Source: an uncultured Gaiellaceae bacterium
Lineage (GTDB): Bacteria; Actinomycetota; Thermoleophilia; Gaiellales; Gaiellaceae
DNA: 64,000 bases
NCBI GenBank assembly: GCA_963820225.1
Contig: CAWFYY010000005.1
Location: 125,620 to 189,619 of the forward strand
Direction: 5' to 3'
Below, in pieces: positions 7,657 to 56,032 of this stretch (positions within the stretch are counted from its first letter, which is position 1; each line of letters begins with the position of its first letter). Under the pieces are notes generated by a model. That model made no database searches. It saw only the letters and a program-made list of their open reading frames with translations, and had not been told where the DNA came from. A program made the position numbers and the translations under genes.

Positions 7657-8261
7657 AAGTCCTCTTGCTGGGCCGGCACGGCAAGGTCGGCTCGGTTCTG
7701 GGGCCGGCACTCGAGGAGGCGGGCCACGAGCTCGTCGACTCGACCGACGATGCCGACGCCGCCGTCGACTTCACGGCCCCGGACGCCGTGGAGGAGAACG
7801 TGCGCGCGTGCCTCGCTGCCGGCGTGCCGGTTGTCGTTGGGACATCGGGCTTCGACCTGGAGCGGCTGGCGGCGCTCGCAACCGAGCACGACCTGCCGGT
7901 CTTCTACGCGCCGAACTTCGCGCTCGGAGCGGTGCTGATGATGCGCTTCGCCGAGGAGGCCGGGAAGGTCATGCCGGACGCGGAGATCATCGAGCTGCAC
8001 CACGAGACGAAGCAGGACGCACCCTCCGGCACGGCCAGGGCGACTGCCGAGCTGTTGCCGGGTGAGACGCCGATCCATTCGGTGCGCCTGCCGGGACTCG
8101 TCGCGCACCAGGAAGTGATCTTCGGCGGCTCTGGGCAGACGCTGACGATCCGCCACGACACGACCTCCCGTGAGGCGTTCGTGCCGGGCGTCCTGCTCGC
8201 GTTGGAGAAGCTGAGCGCGTTGCCGCCGACGTTGACGGTCGGCCTCGACGAGCTTCTGTAG
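7653..8261 (+). CDS. dapB: 4-hydroxy-tetrahydrodipicolinate reductase (short form, 202 aa)
   Basis: ATG 7653 overlaps the M16 stop as ATGA. Motifs include MKVLLLGRHGKVG (NAD(P) fold), VVGTSGF and ELHHETKQDAPSGTA. Confidence 0.9.
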   Translation: MKVLLLGRHGKVGSVLGPALEEAGHELVDSTDDADAAVDFTAPDAVEENVRACLAAGVPVVVGTSGFDLERLAALATEHDLPVFYAPNFALGAVLMMRFAEEAGKVMPDAEIIELHHETKQDAPSGTARATAELLPGETPIHSVRLPGLVAHQEVIFGGSGQTLTIRHDTTSREAFVPGVLLALEKLSALPPTLTVGLDELL

Positions 8262-8903: not shown

Positions 8904-9785
8904 GTGCTCGGCGACGTTCTGACCGCAATCGTGACGCCGTTCAAGCGGGACGGCTCGGTCGACTTAGACAGCTTCCGCGCGCTTGCGCGCCACCTCGTCG
9001 AGAACGGCTCCGACGGCCTGGTCGTCACCGGCACGACAGGCGAGGGGCCCGTGCTCTCCGACGAGGAGCGCCTGGCGCTCTACGCTGCTGCGCTCGAGGA
9101 AGTGGGCGAACAGGCGACCGTGGTCGCCGGCACCGGCACCTACGACACACGCCACTCGATCCACCTGACAGAGCAGGCGCACGAGCTCGGCGTCGACGCC
9201 GTCCTGGTCGTGACTCCCTACTACTCGAAGCCGCCGCAACGCGGGATCGTGGCGCACTTCGAGGCAGTGTCCGCGGCCACCGACAGGCCCGTCGTCGTCT
9301 ACAACATCCCGAGCCGCGTGGTGATCAACATCGAGCCCGACACGATCTCGCGACTCGCCGAGATCGAGAACGTCAGCGCGGTCAAGCAGGCCTACGACGA
9401 TCTTTCAGAGGCGAAGCACATCGTCGAGACGGGCCTCGACCTCTACGCCGGCGACGACGACCTGATCCTGCCGTTCCTCGAGCTCGGCGGCGTCGGCGGC
9501 ATCTGCGTGCACACGCACGTGGTCGGTCCCCAGGTGAAGGAGCTCGTCCGGCTGTGGAAGGCCGGCGAGCACGACGCGGCCCGGGAGCTCAACAGGGAGC
9601 TCGCCCCTTCGATCGAGCTCCTGCGAGTCGTCGGCAACCCGATCGCGATCAAGGCGGCGCTCAATCTGCTCGGGCACGAGGTCGGTGGGCATCGGCTGCC
9701 ACTCGTCGAGGCCACTCACGACGAACGCGACCGCGTTCGTGACTGCCTCTCGCGGCTCGGCCTGCTTCAACCCGCCGTCGCGTAG
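8904..9785 (+). CDS. dapA: 4-hydroxy-tetrahydrodipicolinate synthase
   Basis: Carries the TPF...GLVVTGTTGEG motif and YNIPSR; length is 293 aa, with a GTG start. Confidence 0.93.
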   Translation: MLGDVLTAIVTPFKRDGSVDLDSFRALARHLVENGSDGLVVTGTTGEGPVLSDEERLALYAAALEEVGEQATVVAGTGTYDTRHSIHLTEQAHELGVDAVLVVTPYYSKPPQRGIVAHFEAVSAATDRPVVVYNIPSRVVINIEPDTISRLAEIENVSAVKQAYDDLSEAKHIVETGLDLYAGDDDLILPFLELGGVGGICVHTHVVGPQVKELVRLWKAGEHDAARELNRELAPSIELLRVVGNPIAIKAALNLLGHEVGGHRLPLVEATHDERDRVRDCLSRLGLLQPAVA

Positions 9786-43602: not shown

Positions 43603-44636
43603 AAGTTCTGCTCACGGGATCATCCGGGCAGATCGGCACGAACCTCGCGCATCGCCTGAAGCAGGAAGGTCATGACGTGTTCGGCGTCGACAAACGCCAG
43701 AACACCTGGACCGACGAATTCCGCTACCTGCTCCAGGACCTTTCCGGCCATTACGCATCGTTCCCGGGCGGGATCAACGGCGTCGAGTACCCGGAGGCGG
43801 ACATCGTCGTGCACCTCGCGGCGCACGCGAAGGTGCACCAGCTCGTCCGCCAGCCGCAGCGGGCGCTCGAGAACGCCGTGATGACCTTCAACGTGCTCGA
43901 GTACGCACGCCAGCAGCGCATTCCAATCGTCTTCTCGTCCAGCCGCGAGGTCTACGGGGACGTCCACCGCTTCGAGGAGTACGGCGAGTCGATCGCCGAC
44001 TTCGCCTACACGGAGAGCACCTACTCGGCCTCGAAGATCGCCGGCGAGGCCTTCATCTACTCGTACGCCCGCTGCTACGGGCTGCCGTATCTCGTCTTCC
44101 GGTTCTCGAACGTCTACGGACGCTACGACAACGACCTGCAGCGCATGGTGCGCGTGATCCCGCTCTTCATCCACTCGATGCTCCGCGGGGAGCCGATCAC
44201 GGTCTACGGCGGCCGGGAGAAGACGCTCGACTTCACGTACGTCGACGACTGCGTGGACGGGATCGTGCGTGGGGTCGAGGCCCTCGCAGAGGGCCGGGTC
44301 GTCAACCAGACGATCAACCTCGCCTACGGGCAGGGCAACACACTCGTCCACGTCGCGGAGCGAATCGCCGCGGAGCTCGGGGTCGAGCCGGACATGACGA
44401 TCGCACCGTCGTTGCTCGGCGAGGTGACGCACTACGTCGCCGACCTGAGCAAGGCGCGCGAGCTCCTGGGCTACGACCCGAAAGTGCCGCTCGACGAGGG
44501 GATCGCCCGCTCGGTCGCCTGGTTCCGTGAGCACCGCGACGCTCATCCCGAGGAGAACGTCCCCGTGACGGCCGACCACGAGGGCAGCAGCCCGGACGAT
44601 GTCGAGCACGGCTGGAAGACAGTCCCCGCTACCTGA
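43599..44636 (+). CDS. NAD-dependent epimerase/dehydratase (extended SDR)
   Basis: Motifs are LLTGSSGQIGTNL (GxxGxxG) and YSASK (YxxxK). ATGA overlap with the miaB stop. Confidence 0.88.
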   Translation: MKVLLTGSSGQIGTNLAHRLKQEGHDVFGVDKRQNTWTDEFRYLLQDLSGHYASFPGGINGVEYPEADIVVHLAAHAKVHQLVRQPQRALENAVMTFNVLEYARQQRIPIVFSSSREVYGDVHRFEEYGESIADFAYTESTYSASKIAGEAFIYSYARCYGLPYLVFRFSNVYGRYDNDLQRMVRVIPLFIHSMLRGEPITVYGGREKTLDFTYVDDCVDGIVRGVEALAEGRVVNQTINLAYGQGNTLVHVAERIAAELGVEPDMTIAPSLLGEVTHYVADLSKARELLGYDPKVPLDEGIARSVAWFREHRDAHPEENVPVTADHEGSSPDDVEHGWKTVPAT

Positions 44637-45489
44637 CATCGTCGCGATCTTCGGCCCGACGGGGTCGGGCAAATCCGCCGTTGCGGAGGCGATCGCCGAG
44701 CGGATCCCGGCCGAGCTCGTTTCCGCCGACTCGATGCAGGTCTACCGTGGGCTGCCGATCCTCACGAACCAGGATGCTCACGCGCGCCTCGTCGGCATCT
44801 GGCCGCTCGACCGGCAGGGCACCGTCGGCGAGTTTCAGGTTCTGGCACACCAGGCGATCGACGAGATCGTCGCGGCCGGCCGGACCGCTGTTGTCGTGGG
44901 CGGCTCCGGCCTCTGGTTCCAAGCGGCGCTGACGGACGTGCGCCTACCGCCCGACGTGCCCGCCGACGCGCGAGCGCGCTGGGAGCGGCTCTACGACCGG
45001 CGCGGCGCAGCCACCGCGCACGGTCTGCTGCAGTCCCGCGATCCCCGTGCCGCCGCCCAGGTGCATCCGAACGACCGCAAGCGCGTCGTGCGCGCCCTGG
45101 AGCTCTGGCAGGCCGGCGGAACGCTGGTGCCGGAGGAGCCGCGCCTCTGGAGCGCCGAGCTTCGCCTCCCGACTGTCATCGCGGGCCTCGACGTCCCGCA
45201 CGAGACCCTGGCGGCACGGATCCGCGCCCGCACCGCTGCGATGTTCGAGCACGGGGTGGAGGAGGAGGTGCGGGCGGCGGGCGATGTCGTTCCGCAGGTG
45301 CTCGGCCTCGATGCCGTGCGCGGGCTGTCCCGGCCAGAGGCGATCGTCGAGCTCGAACGAGGAACGCTGCGCTTCGCCGCCTACCAGCGGAAGTGGATGC
45401 GCCGCATCCCCGGCATCGTCATGATCGACGCGGACCGGCCGGTGGGAGAGGTGGCGGATGCGATTCTCGAAGTGGCACGCACTCGGTAA
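44599..45489 (+). CDS. miaA: tRNA dimethylallyltransferase
   Basis: P-loop IFGPTGSGKSAVA plus DSMQVYRGLPILTNQ. The start is uncertain; the track ATG overlaps the previous gene by 38 nt. Confidence 0.9.
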   Translation: MSSTAGRQSPLPDIVAIFGPTGSGKSAVAEAIAERIPAELVSADSMQVYRGLPILTNQDAHARLVGIWPLDRQGTVGEFQVLAHQAIDEIVAAGRTAVVVGGSGLWFQAALTDVRLPPDVPADARARWERLYDRRGAATAHGLLQSRDPRAAAQVHPNDRKRVVRALELWQAGGTLVPEEPRLWSAELRLPTVIAGLDVPHETLAARIRARTAAMFEHGVEEEVRAAGDVVPQVLGLDAVRGLSRPEAIVELERGTLRFAAYQRKWMRRIPGIVMIDADRPVGEVADAILEVARTR

Positions 45490-46225
45490 CAGCTACCTGC
45501 TCGTCGAGCGGGAATCGGGCGTGTCGCTCGAGTCCGAGCTCGCACGGCGGCTCTGCGACGTTCGCTACGGGATCGGCTCCGACGGTGTCCTCGAGATCGT
45601 CGCGGTCGAGGATGCACAGGCCGAGATCGTGATCTGGAATCCGGACGGCTCCGTGGCGGAGTTCTCGGGCAACGGCAGCCGCATCGCCGCCGCCTGGCTC
45701 GGCCGGCGGGCCGGCGCTGCTCAGGTGACGATCGCCGTCTCCGGCCGTTCGTATCCCGCGGCAATTCGCGACGACGGGACGATCGCCATGGGCGTCGGGG
45801 ATGTCGAGGTGGGGGAGTTGGAGACGGTCGAGCTCGGCGATGAGCGTGTGGAGCTGACCGCGGTGTCCGTCGGCAACCCGCACGCGGTCGTGCGTGGCAA
45901 CCCGGTGCGCGAAGAGCTCCTCCGGCTCGGCCCGCAACTGGAGGTGAACGAGCGCTTCCCAGACCGGACGAATGTCCAGCTCGTCGGAGTCGACGGACTC
46001 AACGAGCTGACCGTGCTCGTCTGGGAGCGCGGGGCGGGGGAGACGAGCGCCTCGGGATCGAGTGCCGTGGCTGCTGCGGCCGCTGCGGTCGCCAACGGGT
46101 GGTGCGAGAGCCCGGTGACGGTCCGCATGCCCGGCGGGGAGCTGCATGTCGAGCTGGACGAGCAGAATCGCGTCACGCTCGTCGGCCCGGCCGAGGAGAT
46201 CTGCGAAGGCGACCTGAGGGTCTAG
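45458..46225 (+). CDS. dapF: diaminopimelate epimerase homologue with both catalytic Cys positions occupied by Ser
   Basis: Family motifs are FSKWHALGNSY, NPDGSVAEFSGNGSR and ERGAGETSASGSSA. Ser70 is encoded by TCG 45665-45667 and Ser199 by TCG 46052-46054. The gene sits in the conserved miaA-dapF-hflX position. Confidence 0.85.
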   Translation: MRFSKWHALGNSYLLVERESGVSLESELARRLCDVRYGIGSDGVLEIVAVEDAQAEIVIWNPDGSVAEFSGNGSRIAAAWLGRRAGAAQVTIAVSGRSYPAAIRDDGTIAMGVGDVEVGELETVELGDERVELTAVSVGNPHAVVRGNPVREELLRLGPQLEVNERFPDRTNVQLVGVDGLNELTVLVWERGAGETSASGSSAVAAAAAAVANGWCESPVTVRMPGGELHVELDEQNRVTLVGPAEEICEGDLRV

Positions 46226-46968
46226 ACGGCGAGCTCGAACTCTCGCAGCGTCTCGTTCAGGCTCAGGCGCTCGTCGTGCGACTCCTGGCGCCAGCCGATG
46301 ATCAGCGCGCAGTCGATCTGGTAGGTGCCGGCCGGGAACTCCTTGGGGCGCGTGCCCGGAACGACGACTGCGCGCGGCGGGACCACGCCGCGGTGCTCCA
46401 CCGGCTCCGAGCCGGTGACGTCGATGATCGGGACGCTTGCGGTCAGCGAGACGTTCGCCGCCAGGATTGCCCCGGCGCCGATCCGCACGCCCTCGGTCAC
46501 GATGCAGCGGGAGCCGACGAAAGCGCCGTCCTCGACGACGACCGGGGTCGCGTTCGGCGGCTCGAGCACGCCGCCGATGCCGACTCCGCCCGCCAGGTGC
46601 ACATCCGCTCCGATCTGGGCGCACGAGCCCACTGTCGCCCACGTGTCCACCATCGTGCGAGGACCGACCCAGGCGCCGATGTTCACGTAGCCGGGCATCA
46701 GCACCACGCCTTCCGAGAGAAACGAGCCGTAGCGGGCGACCCCGGGCGGGACGATCCGGACGCCCGGTGCGTGCTTCTTCAGCGGGATCTTGTCCTGATA
46801 CGAGAACGGCCCGACCGTCATCGGCTCGACCTTCCGGAGGCGGAAGTACTCGAGGATCGCTTCCTTCGCCTCCACGTCGACGACCCACTCGTCGCCGACC
46901 TTGCTTGCGACGCGCCGCTCGCCCGTGTCGAGCGCCGCGACGATCTCCTCGGCGAGCTCGGGGTTCAC
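46222..46968 (-). CDS. dapD: 2,3,4,5-tetrahydropyridine-2,6-dicarboxylate N-succinyltransferase
   Basis: Left-handed beta-helix hexapeptide repeats (GYVNIGAWVGPRTMVDTWATVGSCAQIGADVHLAGGVGIGG). GTG 46968 overlaps the dapC stop. Confidence 0.9.
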   Translation of the reverse strand: MNPELAEEIVAALDTGERRVASKVGDEWVVDVEAKEAILEYFRLRKVEPMTVGPFSYQDKIPLKKHAPGVRIVPPGVARYGSFLSEGVVLMPGYVNIGAWVGPRTMVDTWATVGSCAQIGADVHLAGGVGIGGVLEPPNATPVVVEDGAFVGSRCIVTEGVRIGAGAILAANVSLTASVPIIDVTGSEPVEHRGVVPPRAVVVPGTRPKEFPAGTYQIDCALIIGWRQESHDERLSLNETLREFELAV

Positions 46969-48113
46969 AGCACCTCTTCGAGGATTGCGACGGCGCGTTG
47001 GCACTCCGTCTCGGAGGGCACGAGCGCGACTCGGAAGTAGCCCTCGCCTGCGGCGCCGAGATACGAGCCGGGCGCGACCAGCACTCCGTGCTCGAGCAGG
47101 CGCTCCGCGAACCCTTCCGAGGACTCGCCCTCCGGGACCGCGAGCCAGAGGTACATCGTTGCTTCGCTGCCCGCGACCCGGATCCCCTTGCGGTCGAAGA
47201 GGTCGAGCAGGAGCGCCCGCTTGCGGCCGTACCGCTCGCGCGTCTGCTCGACGTGCTCCTCGTCGCCCCACGCGACCACCGACGCGCGCTGAACGAACTC
47301 CTGCGGCGCGGTCCCGACTGTCGGCCTGAACGCCTTCAGCGAGGCGATCAGCTCCGGGTCGCCCGCGGCGAAGCCGCTGCGGTACCCCGTCATCGAGCTG
47401 CGCTTCGAGAGCGTGTTGAAGACGATGACGTTCGTCAGGTCCTCGACCTGGAGGGCCGACGCGGGCGGCGCGCCGAACCAGAGCTCCGTATACGCCTCGT
47501 CGGAGGCGAGCACGAAACCGTGCTCCCGGGCGAGACCCGCAAGCTTCTCGTAGAAGGCGAGCGGCGCCATCGCGCAGGTCGGGTTGTTGGGGTAGTTGAC
47601 CCAGAAAACCGCGAGCCGTGACCAGGTCTCGTCGTCGATCGCGTCCAGGTCGGGCAGGAATCCGTTCTTCTCGTGCAGCGGCAGCGCCAGCGGCTGTGCG
47701 TGCGCGAAGAGAGCGCCGCGCTCGTAGACCGGATAGCCCGGGTCGGTGTAGGCGACCGTGTCCCGCGAGCCATCCGCGTCGACGACGGCGAGCGCAAAGC
47801 TGAAGATCGCCTCCTTGCTGCCGAGTGTCGGGATCACCTCCGTCTCCGGGTCGAGGTCGACGCCGAAGCGCCGCCCGGCCCAGGCGGAGATCGCCTCGCG
47901 CAGCTCGGGCAGGCCGACCGCGGCCGGATAGCCCATCCGCTCCCGGAGCCCGGCTACGAGCGCCTCGCGGATCAGCGGATCGGTCGGCTCCTGCGGGTCG
48001 CCCATCCCGAAGTCGATCACCTCGATCCCGCGCTCCTCGATGCGGCGTGCAGCCTCGTTCAGCCGGACGAACGGGTACGTGGTCTGGCGCTCGAGAATCG
48101 GGGAGACGGGCAT
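46965..48113 (-). CDS. dapC: succinyldiaminopimelate aminotransferase (class I PLP aminotransferase)
   Basis: Motifs are DFGMGDP, NYPNNPT and the PLP-Lys motif TLSKRSSMTGYRSG. It is the 382-aa tail of the 1261-aa track ORF, and its operon position is between dapE and dapD. Confidence 0.85.
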   Translation of the reverse strand: MPVSPILERQTTYPFVRLNEAARRIEERGIEVIDFGMGDPQEPTDPLIREALVAGLRERMGYPAAVGLPELREAISAWAGRRFGVDLDPETEVIPTLGSKEAIFSFALAVVDADGSRDTVAYTDPGYPVYERGALFAHAQPLALPLHEKNGFLPDLDAIDDETWSRLAVFWVNYPNNPTCAMAPLAFYEKLAGLAREHGFVLASDEAYTELWFGAPPASALQVEDLTNVIVFNTLSKRSSMTGYRSGFAAGDPELIASLKAFRPTVGTAPQEFVQRASVVAWGDEEHVEQTRERYGRKRALLLDLFDRKGIRVAGSEATMYLWLAVPEGESSEGFAERLLEHGVLVAPGSYLGAAGEGYFRVALVPSETECQRAVAILEEVL

Positions 48114-48115
48114 GG

Positions 48116-49210
48116 TCAGACGGTACCCGTGACGAACGCCCAGAGCGACTCGAAGGCCCGCTCCAGGGCGGCGGTCTCGACCTGCTCGTCGCGCCGGTGC
48201 GCGAAGCGCGTGGCCCCTGGCCCGAAGTTGACCGCATCGATGCCGCGCGAGGTGAAGTCGGCGACGTTCGTCCAGGCCTGCTTCGGCTCGAGCGCCAGGT
48301 CGCCCGCAGCGCGCAGGCGGTGCACGAGCGGCGAGTCGGTCACGACCCGGGCCGGGGGAGAGTCGCCGGCGTGCTCGTACGTCGCACCTTCCGGGAGCAG
48401 GCTGCGGAGGTAGGCGTCCGCGCTCGAGGGAGAGCGGTCGGGCGCGTACCGGAAGTTGATGTTCGCCTCGACGCTGTCCGGGATGACATTGCTCGCGATT
48501 CCGCCTTCGATCTGGGTGATGCTCGCGACCTCGGTGAAGGTGAGTCCGCCGATCTCGACCGGCCGCGGCTCGATCTGCGCGTAGGCGCGGAGACCGTCGA
48601 GCGCCTTGTCGATGGCGTTCTCTGCCGTCCACGGCCTGGCGGAATGCCCGCTGACGCCGTGGAACGTGATCCGGGCGTTGAGGTTGCCGAGACAACCCGC
48701 CTGGATCGTGTTGTCGGTCGGCTCGAGCAGAATCGCCAGCTCTGCCTCGTGCACGAGCCGCGAGCGGTCGAAGAGATCCGGCAGCGGGCTGAACTCGGCC
48801 GGCAGCTCCTCCTTGCCGAATGCGAGCAGTGCGACGTCGACCGCGGGCTCGATCCCGTCCTGTTCGAGCGCCCGCGCGAGCTCGAGCATCACCGCCAGGC
48901 CGCCCTTCATGTCGCTCGCTCCGAGCCCGACCACAGCGCCGTCCTCGATCCGGCCGGGGATGTTCTCCTGAGCGGGCACCGTGTCGTAGTGGCCGGCGAG
49001 CACGACGAGCGGGCGTCCGGCGCTCCGCGGCTGCGCCCAGACGAAGGCGTCCTCGCTTTCGTACTCGAGCACGAAGGACGGAGGGACGAGTGAACGGACG
49101 TGTGCAGCGATTTCCGCCTCGTTCCGGCTTTCGGACGGGATGTTGACGAGCTCGAGCGTGCGGGCGGCGAGCTGGGCGGCGAGGGCGGACATCGGCGGCA
49201 AGCGTGGCAC
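48116..49210 (-). CDS. dapE: succinyl-diaminopimelate desuccinylase (M20 peptidase family)
   Basis: Motifs are LAGHYDTVP and GLGASDMKGG. The start is GTG 49210 or ATG 49192. Confidence 0.88.
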   Translation of the reverse strand: MPRLPPMSALAAQLAARTLELVNIPSESRNEAEIAAHVRSLVPPSFVLEYESEDAFVWAQPRSAGRPLVVLAGHYDTVPAQENIPGRIEDGAVVGLGASDMKGGLAVMLELARALEQDGIEPAVDVALLAFGKEELPAEFSPLPDLFDRSRLVHEAELAILLEPTDNTIQAGCLGNLNARITFHGVSGHSARPWTAENAIDKALDGLRAYAQIEPRPVEIGGLTFTEVASITQIEGGIASNVIPDSVEANINFRYAPDRSPSSADAYLRSLLPEGATYEHAGDSPPARVVTDSPLVHRLRAAGDLALEPKQAWTNVADFTSRGIDAVNFGPGATRFAHRRDEQVETAALERAFESLWAFVTGTV

Positions 49211-49220
49211 AATCCCCGGT

Positions 49221-50549
49221 GTGACGACGCGTCAGGAGACCGGCTCGGGTGTCGAGCCCGAGCGCGGGCTCGTGCTGGCCGTCCTCCCGAAGTCCGCCGA
49301 CGCCGAGGAGGAGCTCGGCGAGCTGCGCGAGCTCGCTCGCACGGCGGGCGTCGAGCCGATCGGCGAGCTCGTCCAGCAGCGCTCGAGCCCGGACGCGCGC
49401 ACCTACGTTGGGAAGGGCAAGCTCGAGGAGCTGAAGCAGGCGTACGGCGACGCAAAGGCCGAGGTCCTGCTCGTCGACGGGGAGCTCGAGCCGTCGCAGC
49501 AGCGCGCACTCGAGAACGCCCTGACGGCACGCGTCGTCGATCGAACGCAGCTGATCCTCGACATCTTCGCCCAGCACGCCACGAGTGCGGAGGGGAAACT
49601 CCAGGTCGAGCTCGCCCAGCTCGAGTACAACCTGCCGCGGATGCGTGGCATGTGGCAGCACCTCGAGCGCCTCGGCGGCGGCTCGGGTGCGCTCGGCGCG
49701 GGAGTCGGAACGCGAGGCCCCGGCGAGTCCCAGCTCGAGACCGACCGCCGCATCGCCCGCCGCAAGATCTCGCTCCTGCGCCGCCGGCTGCGCGACCTCG
49801 GCAAGCAGCGAAATGTCCGCCGCAAGGAGCGTTCGCAGAGCGGCACACCCAGTGTTGCGCTCGCGGGCTACACGAACGTCGGCAAGTCGACGCTCCTGAA
49901 CGCCCTCACGGGCTCCGAGGTCAGCGTCGAGAACCGACTGTTCGAGACGCTCGATCCGACGACGCGCGCGTTCGAGCACGACGGGAAGCGGTATCTCGTG
50001 ACCGACACCGTCGGGTTCATCCGCCGCCTGCCGACGCAGCTCGTCGAGGGCTTCGCCTCGACGCTCGAGGAGACGCTCGTCTCGGATCTCATCCTGCACG
50101 TCGTCGATGCCTCGGAGACAGACGACCGGCTGGAGGAGATGATCGATTCCGTGGACACGGTCCTGCACGAGATCGGAGCAGACGAGGTGCCGCTCGAGCT
50201 CGTCCTGAACAAGATCGACCGAGTCGACCCACTCGGGCGCAAGAGGCTGGCGAACGGCTTTCCGGGTGCCGTGCAGATCTCGGCGGTGACCGGAGAGGGC
50301 CTCGACGAGCTCCGGGCGAGGATCGCGGCCCGGTTCGCCGACCGCTACGAGGACGTTCGGCTGCTGCTTCCCTACGAGGACGGTGGGAAGCTCGCCGAGC
50401 TCTACGCACTCGGTGCGCCGATCCACGAGCGCGAGGACCTCGAGCACGGCGTGCTGATCCGCGCCCGCCTGCCGCAGCGCGAGGTGCGGCGTTTCGCCCG
50501 CTATCTCATTGCGGACGCGCACGAAGGCTCGGCGGCGGAACGAGGGTGA
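49221..50549 (+). CDS. hflX: GTPase HflX
   Basis: N-terminal HflX domain (VDRTQLILDIFAQHA..LQVELAQL). GTPase motifs are G1 GYTNVGKSTL, G3 DTVGF and G4 NKID. GTG 49221 is chosen as the start. Confidence 0.92.
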   Translation: MTTRQETGSGVEPERGLVLAVLPKSADAEEELGELRELARTAGVEPIGELVQQRSSPDARTYVGKGKLEELKQAYGDAKAEVLLVDGELEPSQQRALENALTARVVDRTQLILDIFAQHATSAEGKLQVELAQLEYNLPRMRGMWQHLERLGGGSGALGAGVGTRGPGESQLETDRRIARRKISLLRRRLRDLGKQRNVRRKERSQSGTPSVALAGYTNVGKSTLLNALTGSEVSVENRLFETLDPTTRAFEHDGKRYLVTDTVGFIRRLPTQLVEGFASTLEETLVSDLILHVVDASETDDRLEEMIDSVDTVLHEIGADEVPLELVLNKIDRVDPLGRKRLANGFPGAVQISAVTGEGLDELRARIAARFADRYEDVRLLLPYEDGGKLAELYALGAPIHEREDLEHGVLIRARLPQREVRRFARYLIADAHEGSAAERG

Positions 50550-53731: not shown

Positions 53732-54480
53732 AACCGCCCACCGCGACGACGTGCCCGCTCGGCTGCGACCGCGTGGGCGTTCGTTTCGAGGCGGTCGGGC
53801 AGCGGCTCGAGCTCCGGCGGCTCGCCGCCCGTCGCGTGCGCCAGAGCCTGCGACAGGATCCAGTCCGCGAGCCAGGGATTGCGGGGGAGGAGCGGGCCGT
53901 GGAGATAGGTGCCCAGGGCGCGACCTACTCGCACCCCTTCGTACCCAGACTCACCGTCGTTTCCGAATCCGGCAATGACGCGACCGAGCGGCTCGGCGCC
54001 CGGATCGAGGCGTGTGCGACCGGCATGGTTCTCGAAGCCCGCGATCGTCCGGCGCTGTCCGGGAACGAGCTCGCACTCCAGGAGCACGTCGCCGATCATC
54101 CGCCGCTCGCCCGCGACGGTCTCGTGCGGGAAAAGGCCCACACCGGCGAGCCACTCACCGTGCTGGTCGAGATAGCCGCGCCCGAGAAGCTGGTAGCCGC
54201 CGCAGACCGCGAGCAGCGCTGCGCCCGCATCGACGGCCTGTTCGATCGCTGGGCCCTTGCCGACCAGGTCCGGGGCGATCAACGCCTGTTCCCGATCCTG
54301 GCCGCCGCCGATGTAGAGGAGATCGTGCGCGCCCGCTCCGACCTCGTCACCGACCGAGATCGCCGTCACCTCGAGCTCGTGCCCGCGGAGTCCCGCCCGA
54401 CGTTCGAAGACGGCGATGTTGCCCCGATCGGCGTAGATGTTCAGGTAGTCGGGATAGAGATGCCCGACACGAATCTTCAT
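53728..54480 (-). CDS. gatD: lipid II isoglutaminyl synthase, glutaminase subunit GatD (CobQ-type amidotransferase)
   Basis: Motifs are MKIRVGHLYPDYLNIYADRGN, the nucleophile motif AVCGGYQLLG and YLHGPLLPRNP. ATGA overlap with the murT stop. Confidence 0.88.
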   Translation of the reverse strand: MKIRVGHLYPDYLNIYADRGNIAVFERRAGLRGHELEVTAISVGDEVGAGAHDLLYIGGGQDREQALIAPDLVGKGPAIEQAVDAGAALLAVCGGYQLLGRGYLDQHGEWLAGVGLFPHETVAGERRMIGDVLLECELVPGQRRTIAGFENHAGRTRLDPGAEPLGRVIAGFGNDGESGYEGVRVGRALGTYLHGPLLPRNPWLADWILSQALAHATGGEPPELEPLPDRLETNAHAVAAERARRRGGRF

Positions 54481-55844
54481 GAACGCTCCCAGTACGGCTT
54501 CGCGTGACCTCGCTCCGTCAGGATCCGCTGGAGCGCGAGCATGGCTGTGTAGGTGGGGAGGACGACGAGCTCGCCGCCGGACGGTGTCAGCGCCAGCCCG
54601 CGATCCAGTGCCCGCGCGAGATCGGGCTCGACCTCGAGGGCATTCTCGTCCAGACCGCCGTAGACGCAGCGCACACCGAGCTCTGCCGCGCGGCCGCCCG
54701 ACGCGATCAGGTGCTCGACGTGGACCAGAAGCGGCTCGAAGTCGACGTCCCAGATCCAGGACACGTCCTGACCGTCGGCGATCGCGTCGTTCAGCGCGAC
54801 GAAGAGCAGCGAGGGGGCGCCGCCCTGCTCGAGCGTGTGGACGACTTCGTTCGCGCCGGCGGGATTCTTGATCAGGAGCACCAGGATCGTCCTGTCCCCG
54901 GCGGCGATGCGCTCGAAGCGGCCGAAGGCGGCGCCGAATCGCTCGAGCCCTGCCCGAATCTCGTCGAGAGGCGCACCGAGGACCTGTGCCAGCGCAGCAG
55001 CCCCGAGTGCGTTGTAGACGTTGTAGAGCCCGGGGAGCGGCAGCCGAACGCGGGTCGACCCTGCGGGGGTCTCGAGCTCGAACGACACGCCTTCCAGCCC
55101 GTCGAGCTCGATCGCGCGCGCGCGCACCTGAAGCGGGGGGCGAGCGTGGCCACACGCCGGGCAGTGGTAGTGGCCGAGATGCCCGACGTACGCGGCGGCG
55201 AACTCGTACGGCCGGCCGCAGCGAACGCAGTAGCGCGAGTCGGCTGCGTGCTGCAGCGTCGGGCGGGCGTGTGCGGGATCGTCGATGCCGAAGGCGATCG
55301 TGCCGGCGCGATCGCGCCCGAGGTCGCCGACCTGCGGGTCGTCCCCGTTGACCACGAGCACCGTCTCCTGCGGAAGGCCTGCGGCCGCCAACCGCCAGTT
55401 GGCGGCGATGTGCTCCAGCTCGCCGTAGCGATCGAGCTGGTCCCGGAAGAGGTTGCCGAGCAGCACGGCGCGCGGCCGCACGCGGCGCGCGATCTCGGGC
55501 AGCGCGCCCTCGTCCACCTCCAGGAGCCCGAGCTCGGCGTCACGCTGCGTCAGGAGCGTCGAGGCCACGCCGGAGGCGAGGTTCGCGCCGGAGCGGTTCC
55601 AGGCAAGGCGGTGCTTCGGCTCGAGAATCTCGGCGGCCATGGCGGTGGTCGTCGTCTTGCCGTTCGTTGCGGAGATGACCGCGGCGCCGTCCGGGAGCCG
55701 CGCTGCGAGCGCGTCGATCGCGCTCGGATCGAGCTTCCAGAGCAGCTTGCCCGGCAGGGTCGTGCCGCCGCCCGTGCCCGCGAGGCGCGAGAGCTTGCCG
55801 GCTGCTCGAGCAGCGAGGGACTCGACTGCGAGACGGGCACTCAT
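54477..55844 (-). CDS. murT: lipid II isoglutaminyl synthase, Mur-ligase-like subunit MurT
   Basis: P-loop ISATNGKTTT and zinc ribbon CVRCGRPYEF...HYHCPACGH, with a DUF1727-like C-terminus. Confidence 0.9.
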   Translation of the reverse strand: MSARLAVESLAARAAGKLSRLAGTGGGTTLPGKLLWKLDPSAIDALAARLPDGAAVISATNGKTTTTAMAAEILEPKHRLAWNRSGANLASGVASTLLTQRDAELGLLEVDEGALPEIARRVRPRAVLLGNLFRDQLDRYGELEHIAANWRLAAAGLPQETVLVVNGDDPQVGDLGRDRAGTIAFGIDDPAHARPTLQHAADSRYCVRCGRPYEFAAAYVGHLGHYHCPACGHARPPLQVRARAIELDGLEGVSFELETPAGSTRVRLPLPGLYNVYNALGAAALAQVLGAPLDEIRAGLERFGAAFGRFERIAAGDRTILVLLIKNPAGANEVVHTLEQGGAPSLLFVALNDAIADGQDVSWIWDVDFEPLLVHVEHLIASGGRAAELGVRCVYGGLDENALEVEPDLARALDRGLALTPSGGELVVLPTYTAMLALQRILTERGHAKPYWERS

Positions 55845-56032
55845 CCGCGGGCGAGAGTACCCGTAGTCCCTCGATCGAGTGAACTTCGCCCGGCCTAACC
55901 CTAAAGGGTGAGGAAGCGTCCCCTAAACGCGCATACGGTGGGGCGCGGTTAGCAGTAGGGCGCGGTCTGCGGTACGTCCGGCCCCACTGTCCAGGTTCAT
56001 GCGGCCCGCGCCCAGCGCGGACAAGGAGAAAG

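Follow-up and report, generated by a model that had tools for sequence, protein, structure and literature searches.

A diaminopimelate epimerase orthologue of Gaiellaceae with serine at both catalytic cysteine positions

Diaminopimelate (DAP) epimerase, DapF (EC 5.1.1.7), is the model for cofactor-independent two-thiol racemisation and an antibiotic target, and its inhibitors, among them aziridino-DAP and thiol-reactive compounds, were designed around its cysteines. Here we analyse a dapF gene that encodes serine at the two positions where all DapF enzymes studied carry their catalytic cysteines. It lies in a 64,000-nucleotide stretch of contig CAWFYY010000005.1, referred to below as the window, which belongs to a soil metagenome-assembled genome (MAG) of Gaiellaceae (Gaiellales, Thermoleophilia) of 3.1 Mb, with 75.5% completeness and 4.7% contamination.

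The closest described systems are the canonical DapF enzymes of Haemophilus influenzae (1gqz/2gke), Escherichia coli (4ijz), Anabaena (9mro), Arabidopsis thaliana (3ejx), and Pseudomonas aeruginosa (8qzy), to which the window protein is 30-33% identical. It resembles them in its two-domain pseudo-symmetric fold, in all DAP-binding residues, in the location of the catalytic positions at two helix N-termini, in its place in the DAP/lysine pathway, and in the actinobacterial miaA-dapF synteny. Unlike them, it has Ser for both Cys, Ser for Gly three residues after the second catalytic residue, Gln for Glu two residues past the Asn of the distal carboxylate, and a fixed Tyr in the motif G-N-x-[FY]; it is also about 20 residues shorter, and many members of its family are cysteine-free. 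Another route through the same pathway step without a Cys/Cys DapF is DapF2 of Staphylococcus, reportedly described by Ashniev in 2022 as an Alr2-like DAP epimerase dependent on pyridoxal 5'-phosphate (PLP). DapF2 (Price et al., GapMind 2026, PMC13759103) has the alanine-racemase fold and requires PLP, unlike the window protein. Natural replacement of a catalytic Cys by a hydroxyl residue, in enzymes that use two bases for 1,1-proton transfer, is also known from EcL-DER/YgeA-type Asp/Glu racemases, which carry a Thr/Cys pair, and from Cys-lacking members of the proline-racemase superfamily, the hydroxyproline dehydratases (6r76). In those cases one Cys is replaced and the activity is one-directional or an elimination (PMC8142540), whereas the window protein has lost both cysteines and, by its context, still occupies the epimerase step. 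The nearest laboratory counterparts are the H. influenzae variants C73S and C217S (PDB 2q9h, 2q9j), which likewise place Ser at a catalytic Cys position of an otherwise intact DapF. They are single substitutions made to hinder catalysis (PMC12039745) and lack Tyr13, Gln174, and Ser202 of the window protein, in which Ser stands at both sites, is naturally fixed, and is under purifying selection.

The initial annotation, a reading of the DNA without database searches, described a full-length DapF orthologue with Ser in place of both catalytic Cys, and both statements hold. The protein scores 191.9 bits against the curated NCBIfam equivalog TIGR00652, well above the cut-off of 114.65 bits, contains two PF01678 domains, and shows no alanine-racemase (fold-type III PLP) domain in the domain scan. 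It aligns end to end with the solved DapF structures 8qzy, 3ejx, 2otn, and 9mro; in these alignments Ser70 falls on the first Cys (x-C-G-N-G) and Ser199 on the second (A-C-G-[ST]-G), and the DNA reads a serine codon at each site (Table 1). The Ser70 position is that of Cys73 in H. influenzae and Cys75 in Anabaena, the cysteine alkylated by LL-aziridino-DAP (LL-aziDAP), and the Ser199 position corresponds to Cys217 and Cys224, respectively. Because the thiol/thiolate pair of two cysteines defines DapF and is replaced here by Ser70 and Ser199, the window protein is filed as a variant of DapF and not as an ordinary member.

The DAP-binding residues are those of canonical DapF. The AlphaFold2 (AF2) model of the window protein has a predicted local distance difference test (pLDDT) score of 96.3, with helices beginning at residues 71 and 200, and its top Foldseek matches are all DapF, with a query TM-score (TMq) of 0.94 to the closed, ligand-bound Anabaena DapF (9mro). 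The predicted structure is thus the two-domain DapF fold, with the modelled active site lying between two helix N-termini. The contacts of Anabaena DapF with its DAP ligand are listed in PMC12039745, and each of them has a counterpart in the window protein: N11, N61, G71-N72, N140, N172, E190-R191, and G200-S201. In the Gaiellaceae alignment, each of these predicted DAP-binding residues reaches a conservation of 95% or more. By correspondence with the Anabaena enzyme, for which the roles are described (PMC12039745), Asn11 binds the substrate α-amine and Asn172 the distal carboxylate; the pair that selects the distal L-centre, Glu190-Arg191, is unchanged.

The serine pair is a property of the lineage. 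The initial annotation had proposed typing orthologues from related taxa, and when DapF was typed in 90 Gaiellales genomes, Ser at both positions (Ser/Ser) was found in 62 of 62 Gaiellaceae from 24 genera. The Ser/Ser pair recurs in another family, f5 (13 genomes), where the local motif differs (S-S-G-S-G); family f3 is Ser/Cys, and families f2 and f4 are Cys/Cys. Mixed pairs are always Ser-first, with five Ser/Cys and no Cys/Ser among 212 sequences. The codons vary at both sites: across Gaiellales, Ser70 is encoded by TCC (40), TCG (37), and TCT (1), and Ser199 by TCG (36), TCC (33), TCT (3), TCA (2), and AGC (1). The Ser codons drift synonymously, and therefore the amino acid itself is what is kept. 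The earlier remark that TCG lies two substitutions from TGC is correct for the window codons, but relatives use TCC about equally often, which is one step from TGC. Within the genus, the pairwise ratio of nonsynonymous to synonymous substitution rates (dN/dS) of dapF has a median of 0.22 and a range of 0.10-0.33. Contigs from two unrelated soil/urban metagenome studies span both codons, and neither codon is among the stronger differences listed for them; 46 weaker differences fall outside that list. Metatranscriptome contigs match parts of the gene at about 90% identity; as contigs of relatives, they are not taken as a sign that the window gene is expressed. No alignment column holds Cys in more than 64% of Gaiellaceae DapF proteins, which leaves no conserved Cys, and 12 of 61 of these proteins have no cysteine at all. 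Judged from its sequences, the Gaiellaceae DapF family is truly thiol-free.

The Ser/Ser form extends far beyond Gaiellales. The 150 closest 50%-identity cluster representatives include 80 Ser/Ser, 33 Cys/Cys, and 2 Ser/Cys proteins, and a tightly conserved Ser/Ser group (A-E-K-S-G-N-G-L-R ... G-Y-T-L-A-S-G-S-S) is present in at least 599 species genomes from Verrucomicrobiota, Planctomycetota, Chloroflexota, Cyanobacteria, Deltaproteobacteria, Trueperaceae, and others. The sole DapF of a 6.7-Mb Verrucomicrobiae genome with lysA belongs to this group. A DapF match was found in 93 of 101 sampled Verrucomicrobiota genomes, all but two of the 93 having just one, and typing of 50 gave 41 Cys/Cys and 9 Ser/Ser; such mutual exclusion suggests that each form can take the place of the other. 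Genes of the Ser/Ser type adjoin dapL or lysA (five loci each) in several phyla; apart from these recurrent neighbours, no conserved operon partner of the multi-phylum clade was seen across phyla. The history of the substitution is read differently by different trees. In the FastTree phylogeny, Gaiellaceae group with the multi-phylum Ser/Ser clade, and f5 falls with those Gaiellales that are Cys/Cys or Ser/Cys; a quick IQ-TREE search sets Gaiellaceae apart from the multi-phylum clade, although a constrained joint tree is 12 log-likelihood (lnL) units better. The approximately unbiased test does not reject a tree in which all Ser/Ser rows form one clade (p-AU 0.435). Because the trees conflict and a single clade is not rejected, we claim neither one nor several origins of Ser/Ser.

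Three residues beside the catalytic pair differ together with it. Ser at the first catalytic position is present in 100% of each of three Ser/Ser groups: Gaiellaceae, f5, and the multi-phylum clade, the last of which shares the Tyr13/Gln174/Ser202 signature with Gaiellaceae. Tyr occupies position 13 in every Gaiellaceae and f5 sequence and in 96% of the multi-phylum clade; Cys/Cys enzymes have Phe (60%) or Tyr (38%), and Ser/Cys enzymes Phe (100%). The same holds inside one phylum, since in Verrucomicrobiota the residue is Tyr in 9 of 9 Ser/Ser proteins and Phe in 39 of 41 Cys/Cys proteins. Position 174 is Gln in 97% of Gaiellaceae and 93% of the multi-phylum clade, and Glu in 89% of Cys/Cys and 100% of f5 Ser/Ser sequences. 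Position 202 is Ser in 94% of both Gaiellaceae and the multi-phylum clade, and Gly in all Cys/Cys, Ser/Cys, and f5 sequences. In Anabaena DapF, the backbone NH of the corresponding Gly227 is within hydrogen-bonding distance of the second catalytic sulfur (PMC12039745). On sequence comparison, these changes look like the tuning of a site in use.

From the identity of the protein, its conservation, its context, and the lack of any detectable substitute, we infer that epimerisation continues and by what mechanism. The protein would be the housekeeping DAP epimerase at the ancestral position after miaA, receiving LL-DAP from the neighbouring DapD/DapC/DapE branch and supplying meso-DAP to LysA for lysine and to a DAP-type MurE for the cell wall. 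Its predicted fold and closing two-domain architecture and its substrate-binding residues are all those of canonical DapF. In place of the thiol/thiolate pair to which textbooks ascribe the 1,1-proton transfer, the hydroxyls of Ser70 and Ser199 would flank the α-carbon, each at the N-terminus of the helix that bears a catalytic Cys in canonical DapF, and a hydroxyl/alkoxide pair may carry the transfer in the desolvated closed site. Assistance could come from the helix dipoles, the substrate ammonium, and second-shell residues that have changed along with the catalytic pair, namely Tyr13 throughout the Ser/Ser lineages and, in the Gaiellaceae lineage, Gln174 and Ser202 as well. The initial annotation listed a Ser-based or otherwise modified mechanism as one of three possibilities, and it is the one that the evidence favours. 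That the window DapF is the working LL/meso-DAP epimerase of its lineage, with serine hydroxyls as acid/base pair, has in our judgement a slightly better than even chance of being correct; the broader proposal, in which Gaiellaceae and a large multi-phylum clade (Verrucomicrobiota, Planctomycetota, Chloroflexota, and others) rely on an active thiol-free, cofactor-independent epimerase as their working DapF, seems to us evenly poised.

Several observations weigh against a serine-based epimerase. First, the engineered Cys-to-Ser DapF mutants (structures 2q9h and 2q9j) are catalytically hindered. Second, E. coli without dapF grows by means of LL-DAP and a promiscuous racemase (PMC13759103), and therefore the need for the product does not force the window protein to be the catalyst. 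Third, the genome is a MAG lacking about a quarter of its sequence by the completeness estimate given above. Fourth, the evidence from fusions, in which Ser/Ser DapF domains are joined to LysA in 14 clusters, to MurE in 2, and to class-I aminotransferases in 4, speaks for the epimerase but comes from a search seeded with a Ser/Ser query, which is biased towards that form and silent on Cys/Cys fusions; the search also gave five clusters with Alr-type racemases. Fifth, both forms are encoded together in Rivularia, Pseudomonas sp. 21, and one Thermoleophilia MAG, which hints that they are not always equivalent. The literature searched gave no published characterisation of a Ser/Ser DapF occurring in nature, nor any statement of which diamino acid the wall of Gaiella occulta contains.

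The genomes with two forms and the racemase fusions have features of their own. In the Rivularia MAG (L173, 4963-6834), the Ser/Ser paralogue directly follows a gene for an LdcA-like muramoyltetrapeptide carboxypeptidase, with the canonical DapF elsewhere, and this paralogue may be linked to peptidoglycan recycling. The neighbours of the Pseudomonas sp. 21 paralogue are transporters and uninformative. In the Thermoleophilia MAG (G205), a canonical Cys/Cys DapF and a DapL/DapC-like aminotransferase share one 762-residue frame (C7:548428-550467), and the Ser/Ser DapF is a separate gene at C7:896365-897234. Metagenome proteins P0341, P0342, and P0345-P0347 (664-720 residues) carry an alanine-racemase-type domain (PF00842/PF01168) N-terminal to the Ser/Ser DapF domain, whose motifs are altered (G-N-G-L-M rather than G-N-G-L-R, and Val at position 174); they could join a DapF2-like PLP racemase to a DAP-binding module.

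In the alternative that survives best, the window protein retains DAP binding without acting as the main epimerase, being instead a pseudoenzyme or a moonlighting protein (a sensor, a scaffold, or a channel to LysA or MurE), while meso-DAP is made by a promiscuous racemase, the single Alr or MurI, or LL-DAP enters the wall directly. We consider this unlikely. The hindered Cys-to-Ser mutants, the fusions to Alr-type racemases, and the co-occurrence of both forms all fit it, as does the non-catalytic partnership of E. coli DapF with RppH, complexes of which (PDB 6d13 and 6vck) are among the structure matches of the window protein. So does the growth of E. coli dapF mutants, which put LL-DAP into their peptidoglycan (PMC13759103, citing Mengin-Lecreulx 1988). 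The same source, dated 12 November 2026, reports that the Alr2-like, PLP-dependent DapF2 complements an E. coli dapF deletion. These two results soften the premise of the initial annotation that loss of a catalytic Cys abolishes activity, so that an epimerase is needed; the escape route through DapF2 is not apparent in Gaiellales, where no extra Alr-family copy was found.

Order-wide searches of 118 near-complete Gaiellales genomes (121 for meso-DAP dehydrogenase) detected no substitute enzyme. Meso-DAP dehydrogenase, Ddh (TIGR01921), is above cut-off in 0 of 121 genomes and absent from the MAG. No additional gene of the DapF2/Alr2 type was seen: in nearly all of the 118 genomes TIGR00492 matches a single Alr-family gene, and Ser/Ser and Cys/Cys families do not differ in this count. 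Gaiellaceae mostly have one Asp/Glu racemase gene, with no extra copy accompanying Ser/Ser. Since there is one Alr and mostly one Asp/Glu racemase per genome, no extra racemase tracks the Ser/Ser state; a bifunctional Alr or MurI, which sequence would not reveal, may still contribute. The consumers of meso-DAP are in place: lysA is present in 110 of the 118 genomes and in the MAG, and the murE of the MAG carries the DNPR motif of DAP-adding ligases. One genome flagged as unpublished contributes only to the order-wide tallies of DapF, lysA, Asp/Glu racemase, and Alr genes, and leaving it out alters none of the conclusions. Further against a non-catalytic protein, the Ser residues are invariant while their codons drift, which would be unexpected of catalytic positions that had lost their importance; the Ser/Ser and Cys/Cys forms swap one-for-one across Verrucomicrobiota and Gaiellales; and the correlated Tyr13, Gln174, and Ser202 have the appearance noted above of a site being tuned. 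As a separate observation, the MAG shows two alr-like genes (C3:152846-153808 and C8:139050-140013) against one in its relatives; the copy on C8, which is split and contains an in-frame TAG, may be contamination (estimated at 4.7%) or a pseudogene.

Recruitment to another reaction on DAP or a DAP-like compound, such as a one-base elimination, a dehydration, or the epimerisation of another diamino acid, was also among the possibilities first listed, and it is less probable still. The fold lends itself to such change: DapF-like folds host histidine, proline, and O-ureidoserine racemases, PhzF, and hydroxyproline dehydratase, and in the proline-racemase superfamily the members that lost Cys became hydroxyproline dehydratases. 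In EcL-DER, a Cys-to-Thr variant, activity is altered and runs in one direction (PMC8142540), and the position of the Rivularia paralogue beside an LdcA-like carboxypeptidase gene, in a genome with a canonical DapF, is in keeping with a new role. Against recruitment, the residues that read both ends of DAP are unchanged, including the Glu-Arg pair selecting the distal L-centre, and the score is above the DapF equivalog cut-off. The genomic context is the DAP pathway itself, with dapD, dapC, and dapE adjacent, and the fusions to LysA and MurE point the same way. Recruitment would also leave genomes without any DapF yet with LysA and a DAP-type MurE.

A third possibility from the initial annotation, a canonical Cys/Cys dapF elsewhere, with the window copy a divergent paralogue, would require the gene to lie in the unassembled quarter of the genome. 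The incompleteness and contamination of the MAG allow for this, yet it is very improbable: the proposed genome-wide search gave a single DapF match in the MAG and no second DapF, each of the 118 near-complete Gaiellales genomes gave a DapF match, effectively one apiece (the two matches in one genome are pieces of a split gene), the Ser/Ser gene is the only DapF in six near-complete genomes of the same genus, and the window gene sits in the ancestral miaA-dapF position. An additional PF01678 signal at C14:176577 (11.9 bits) was discarded as spurious, being an unrelated low-complexity frame.

Last, an error of sequencing or assembly is a negligible prospect, as is decay into a pseudogene, and both are refuted as far as the sequence data reach, for although many other window genes have single-base frame disruptions and dapB is matched in two pieces, the dapF frame is intact, the codon changes involve no indel, as the initial annotation pointed out, dN/dS is 0.22, the same serines recur in 62 genomes and hundreds of metagenome proteins, and independent contigs agree at both codons.

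The gene order around dapF departs in one respect from that first described. The initial annotation placed the gene in a conserved miaA-dapF-hflX run; the miaA-dapF part stands, with miaA upstream in 61 of 62 Gaiellaceae and 12 of 13 f5 loci, but hflX does not directly follow dapF, a convergent dapE-dapC-dapD operon intervening. The local order is miaA and dapF on the forward strand, dapD, dapC, and dapE on the opposite strand, and then hflX on the forward strand, so that the succinylase branch (46222-49231) interrupts the usual actinobacterial run. Family matches bear out the presence of dapA, dapB, dapD, dapC, and dapE within the window. The dapF start overlaps the miaA end by 32 nucleotides, and the family match of hflX starts at residue 97, which puts its real start near 49.28 kb. 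The stops of dapF and dapD overlap in the palindrome CTAG, the dapF stop being TAG at 46223-46225 and the dapD stop the complement of 46222-46224; this leaves no intergenic room for a terminator between the convergent genes. An overlap of about 60 nucleotides is apparent between dapC and dapD. The two-piece dapB match lies inside one long open frame with its N-terminal third unmatched, consistent with the single-base frame disruptions elsewhere in the window. A MurT-like gene (lipid II isoglutaminyl synthase subunit; 54477-55922, reverse strand; 238 bits, under cut-off) near the DAP genes suggests amidated D-isoglutamate (D-iGlu) in the peptidoglycan.

Table 1. Features of the window, with positions counted from its first nucleotide.
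Feature	Position	Strand	Basis or remark
dapF orthologue, Ser/Ser type, 255 aa	45458..46225	+	Profile matches, structure alignments, AF2 model
Tyr13 (TAC)	45494..45496	+	G-N-x-Y motif, two residues after Asn11; candidate helper residue
Ser70 (TCG)	45665..45667	+	Under first catalytic Cys; motif E-F-S-G-N-G
Gln174 (CAG)	45977..45979	+	Two residues after Asn172; mostly Glu in Cys/Cys enzymes
Ser199 (TCG)	46052..46054	+	Under second catalytic Cys; motif G-E-T-S-A-S-G-S-S
Ser202 (AGT)	46061..46063	+	Replaces Gly227 of Anabaena DapF
miaA (tRNA isopentenyltransferase)	44599..45489	+	PF01715, 146 bits; conserved gene upstream of dapF
dapD (tetrahydrodipicolinate N-succinyltransferase)	46222..47028	-	NF008808, 296 bits, cut-off 204; convergent with dapF
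dapC (succinyl-DAP aminotransferase)	46965..48083	-	TIGR03537, 425.8 bits, slightly below cut-off 453.6; best family
dapE (succinyl-DAP desuccinylase, releases LL-DAP)	48116..49231	-	TIGR01900, 352 bits, cut-off 304
hflX GTPase	48990..50549 (open-frame limits)	+	TIGR03156, 419 bits
dapB	7731..8249	+	Family model matched in two pieces; C5:133350-133868 in the MAG
dapA	8916..9755	+	Family match; C5:134535-135374 in the MAG

Should the flux to lysine and peptidoglycan run through a Ser/Ser enzyme in abundant soil and water bacteria, the mechanism of DapF would not be obligatorily thiol-based. Oxidation-insensitive epimerases would then be available for biocatalysis, and thiol-directed inhibitors would miss Ser/Ser organisms. 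If the protein is inactive, whole bacterial families would make or avoid meso-DAP by a route not yet known, and there would be a gap in lysine-pathway reconstructions, which now call the gene 'dapF' by similarity alone.

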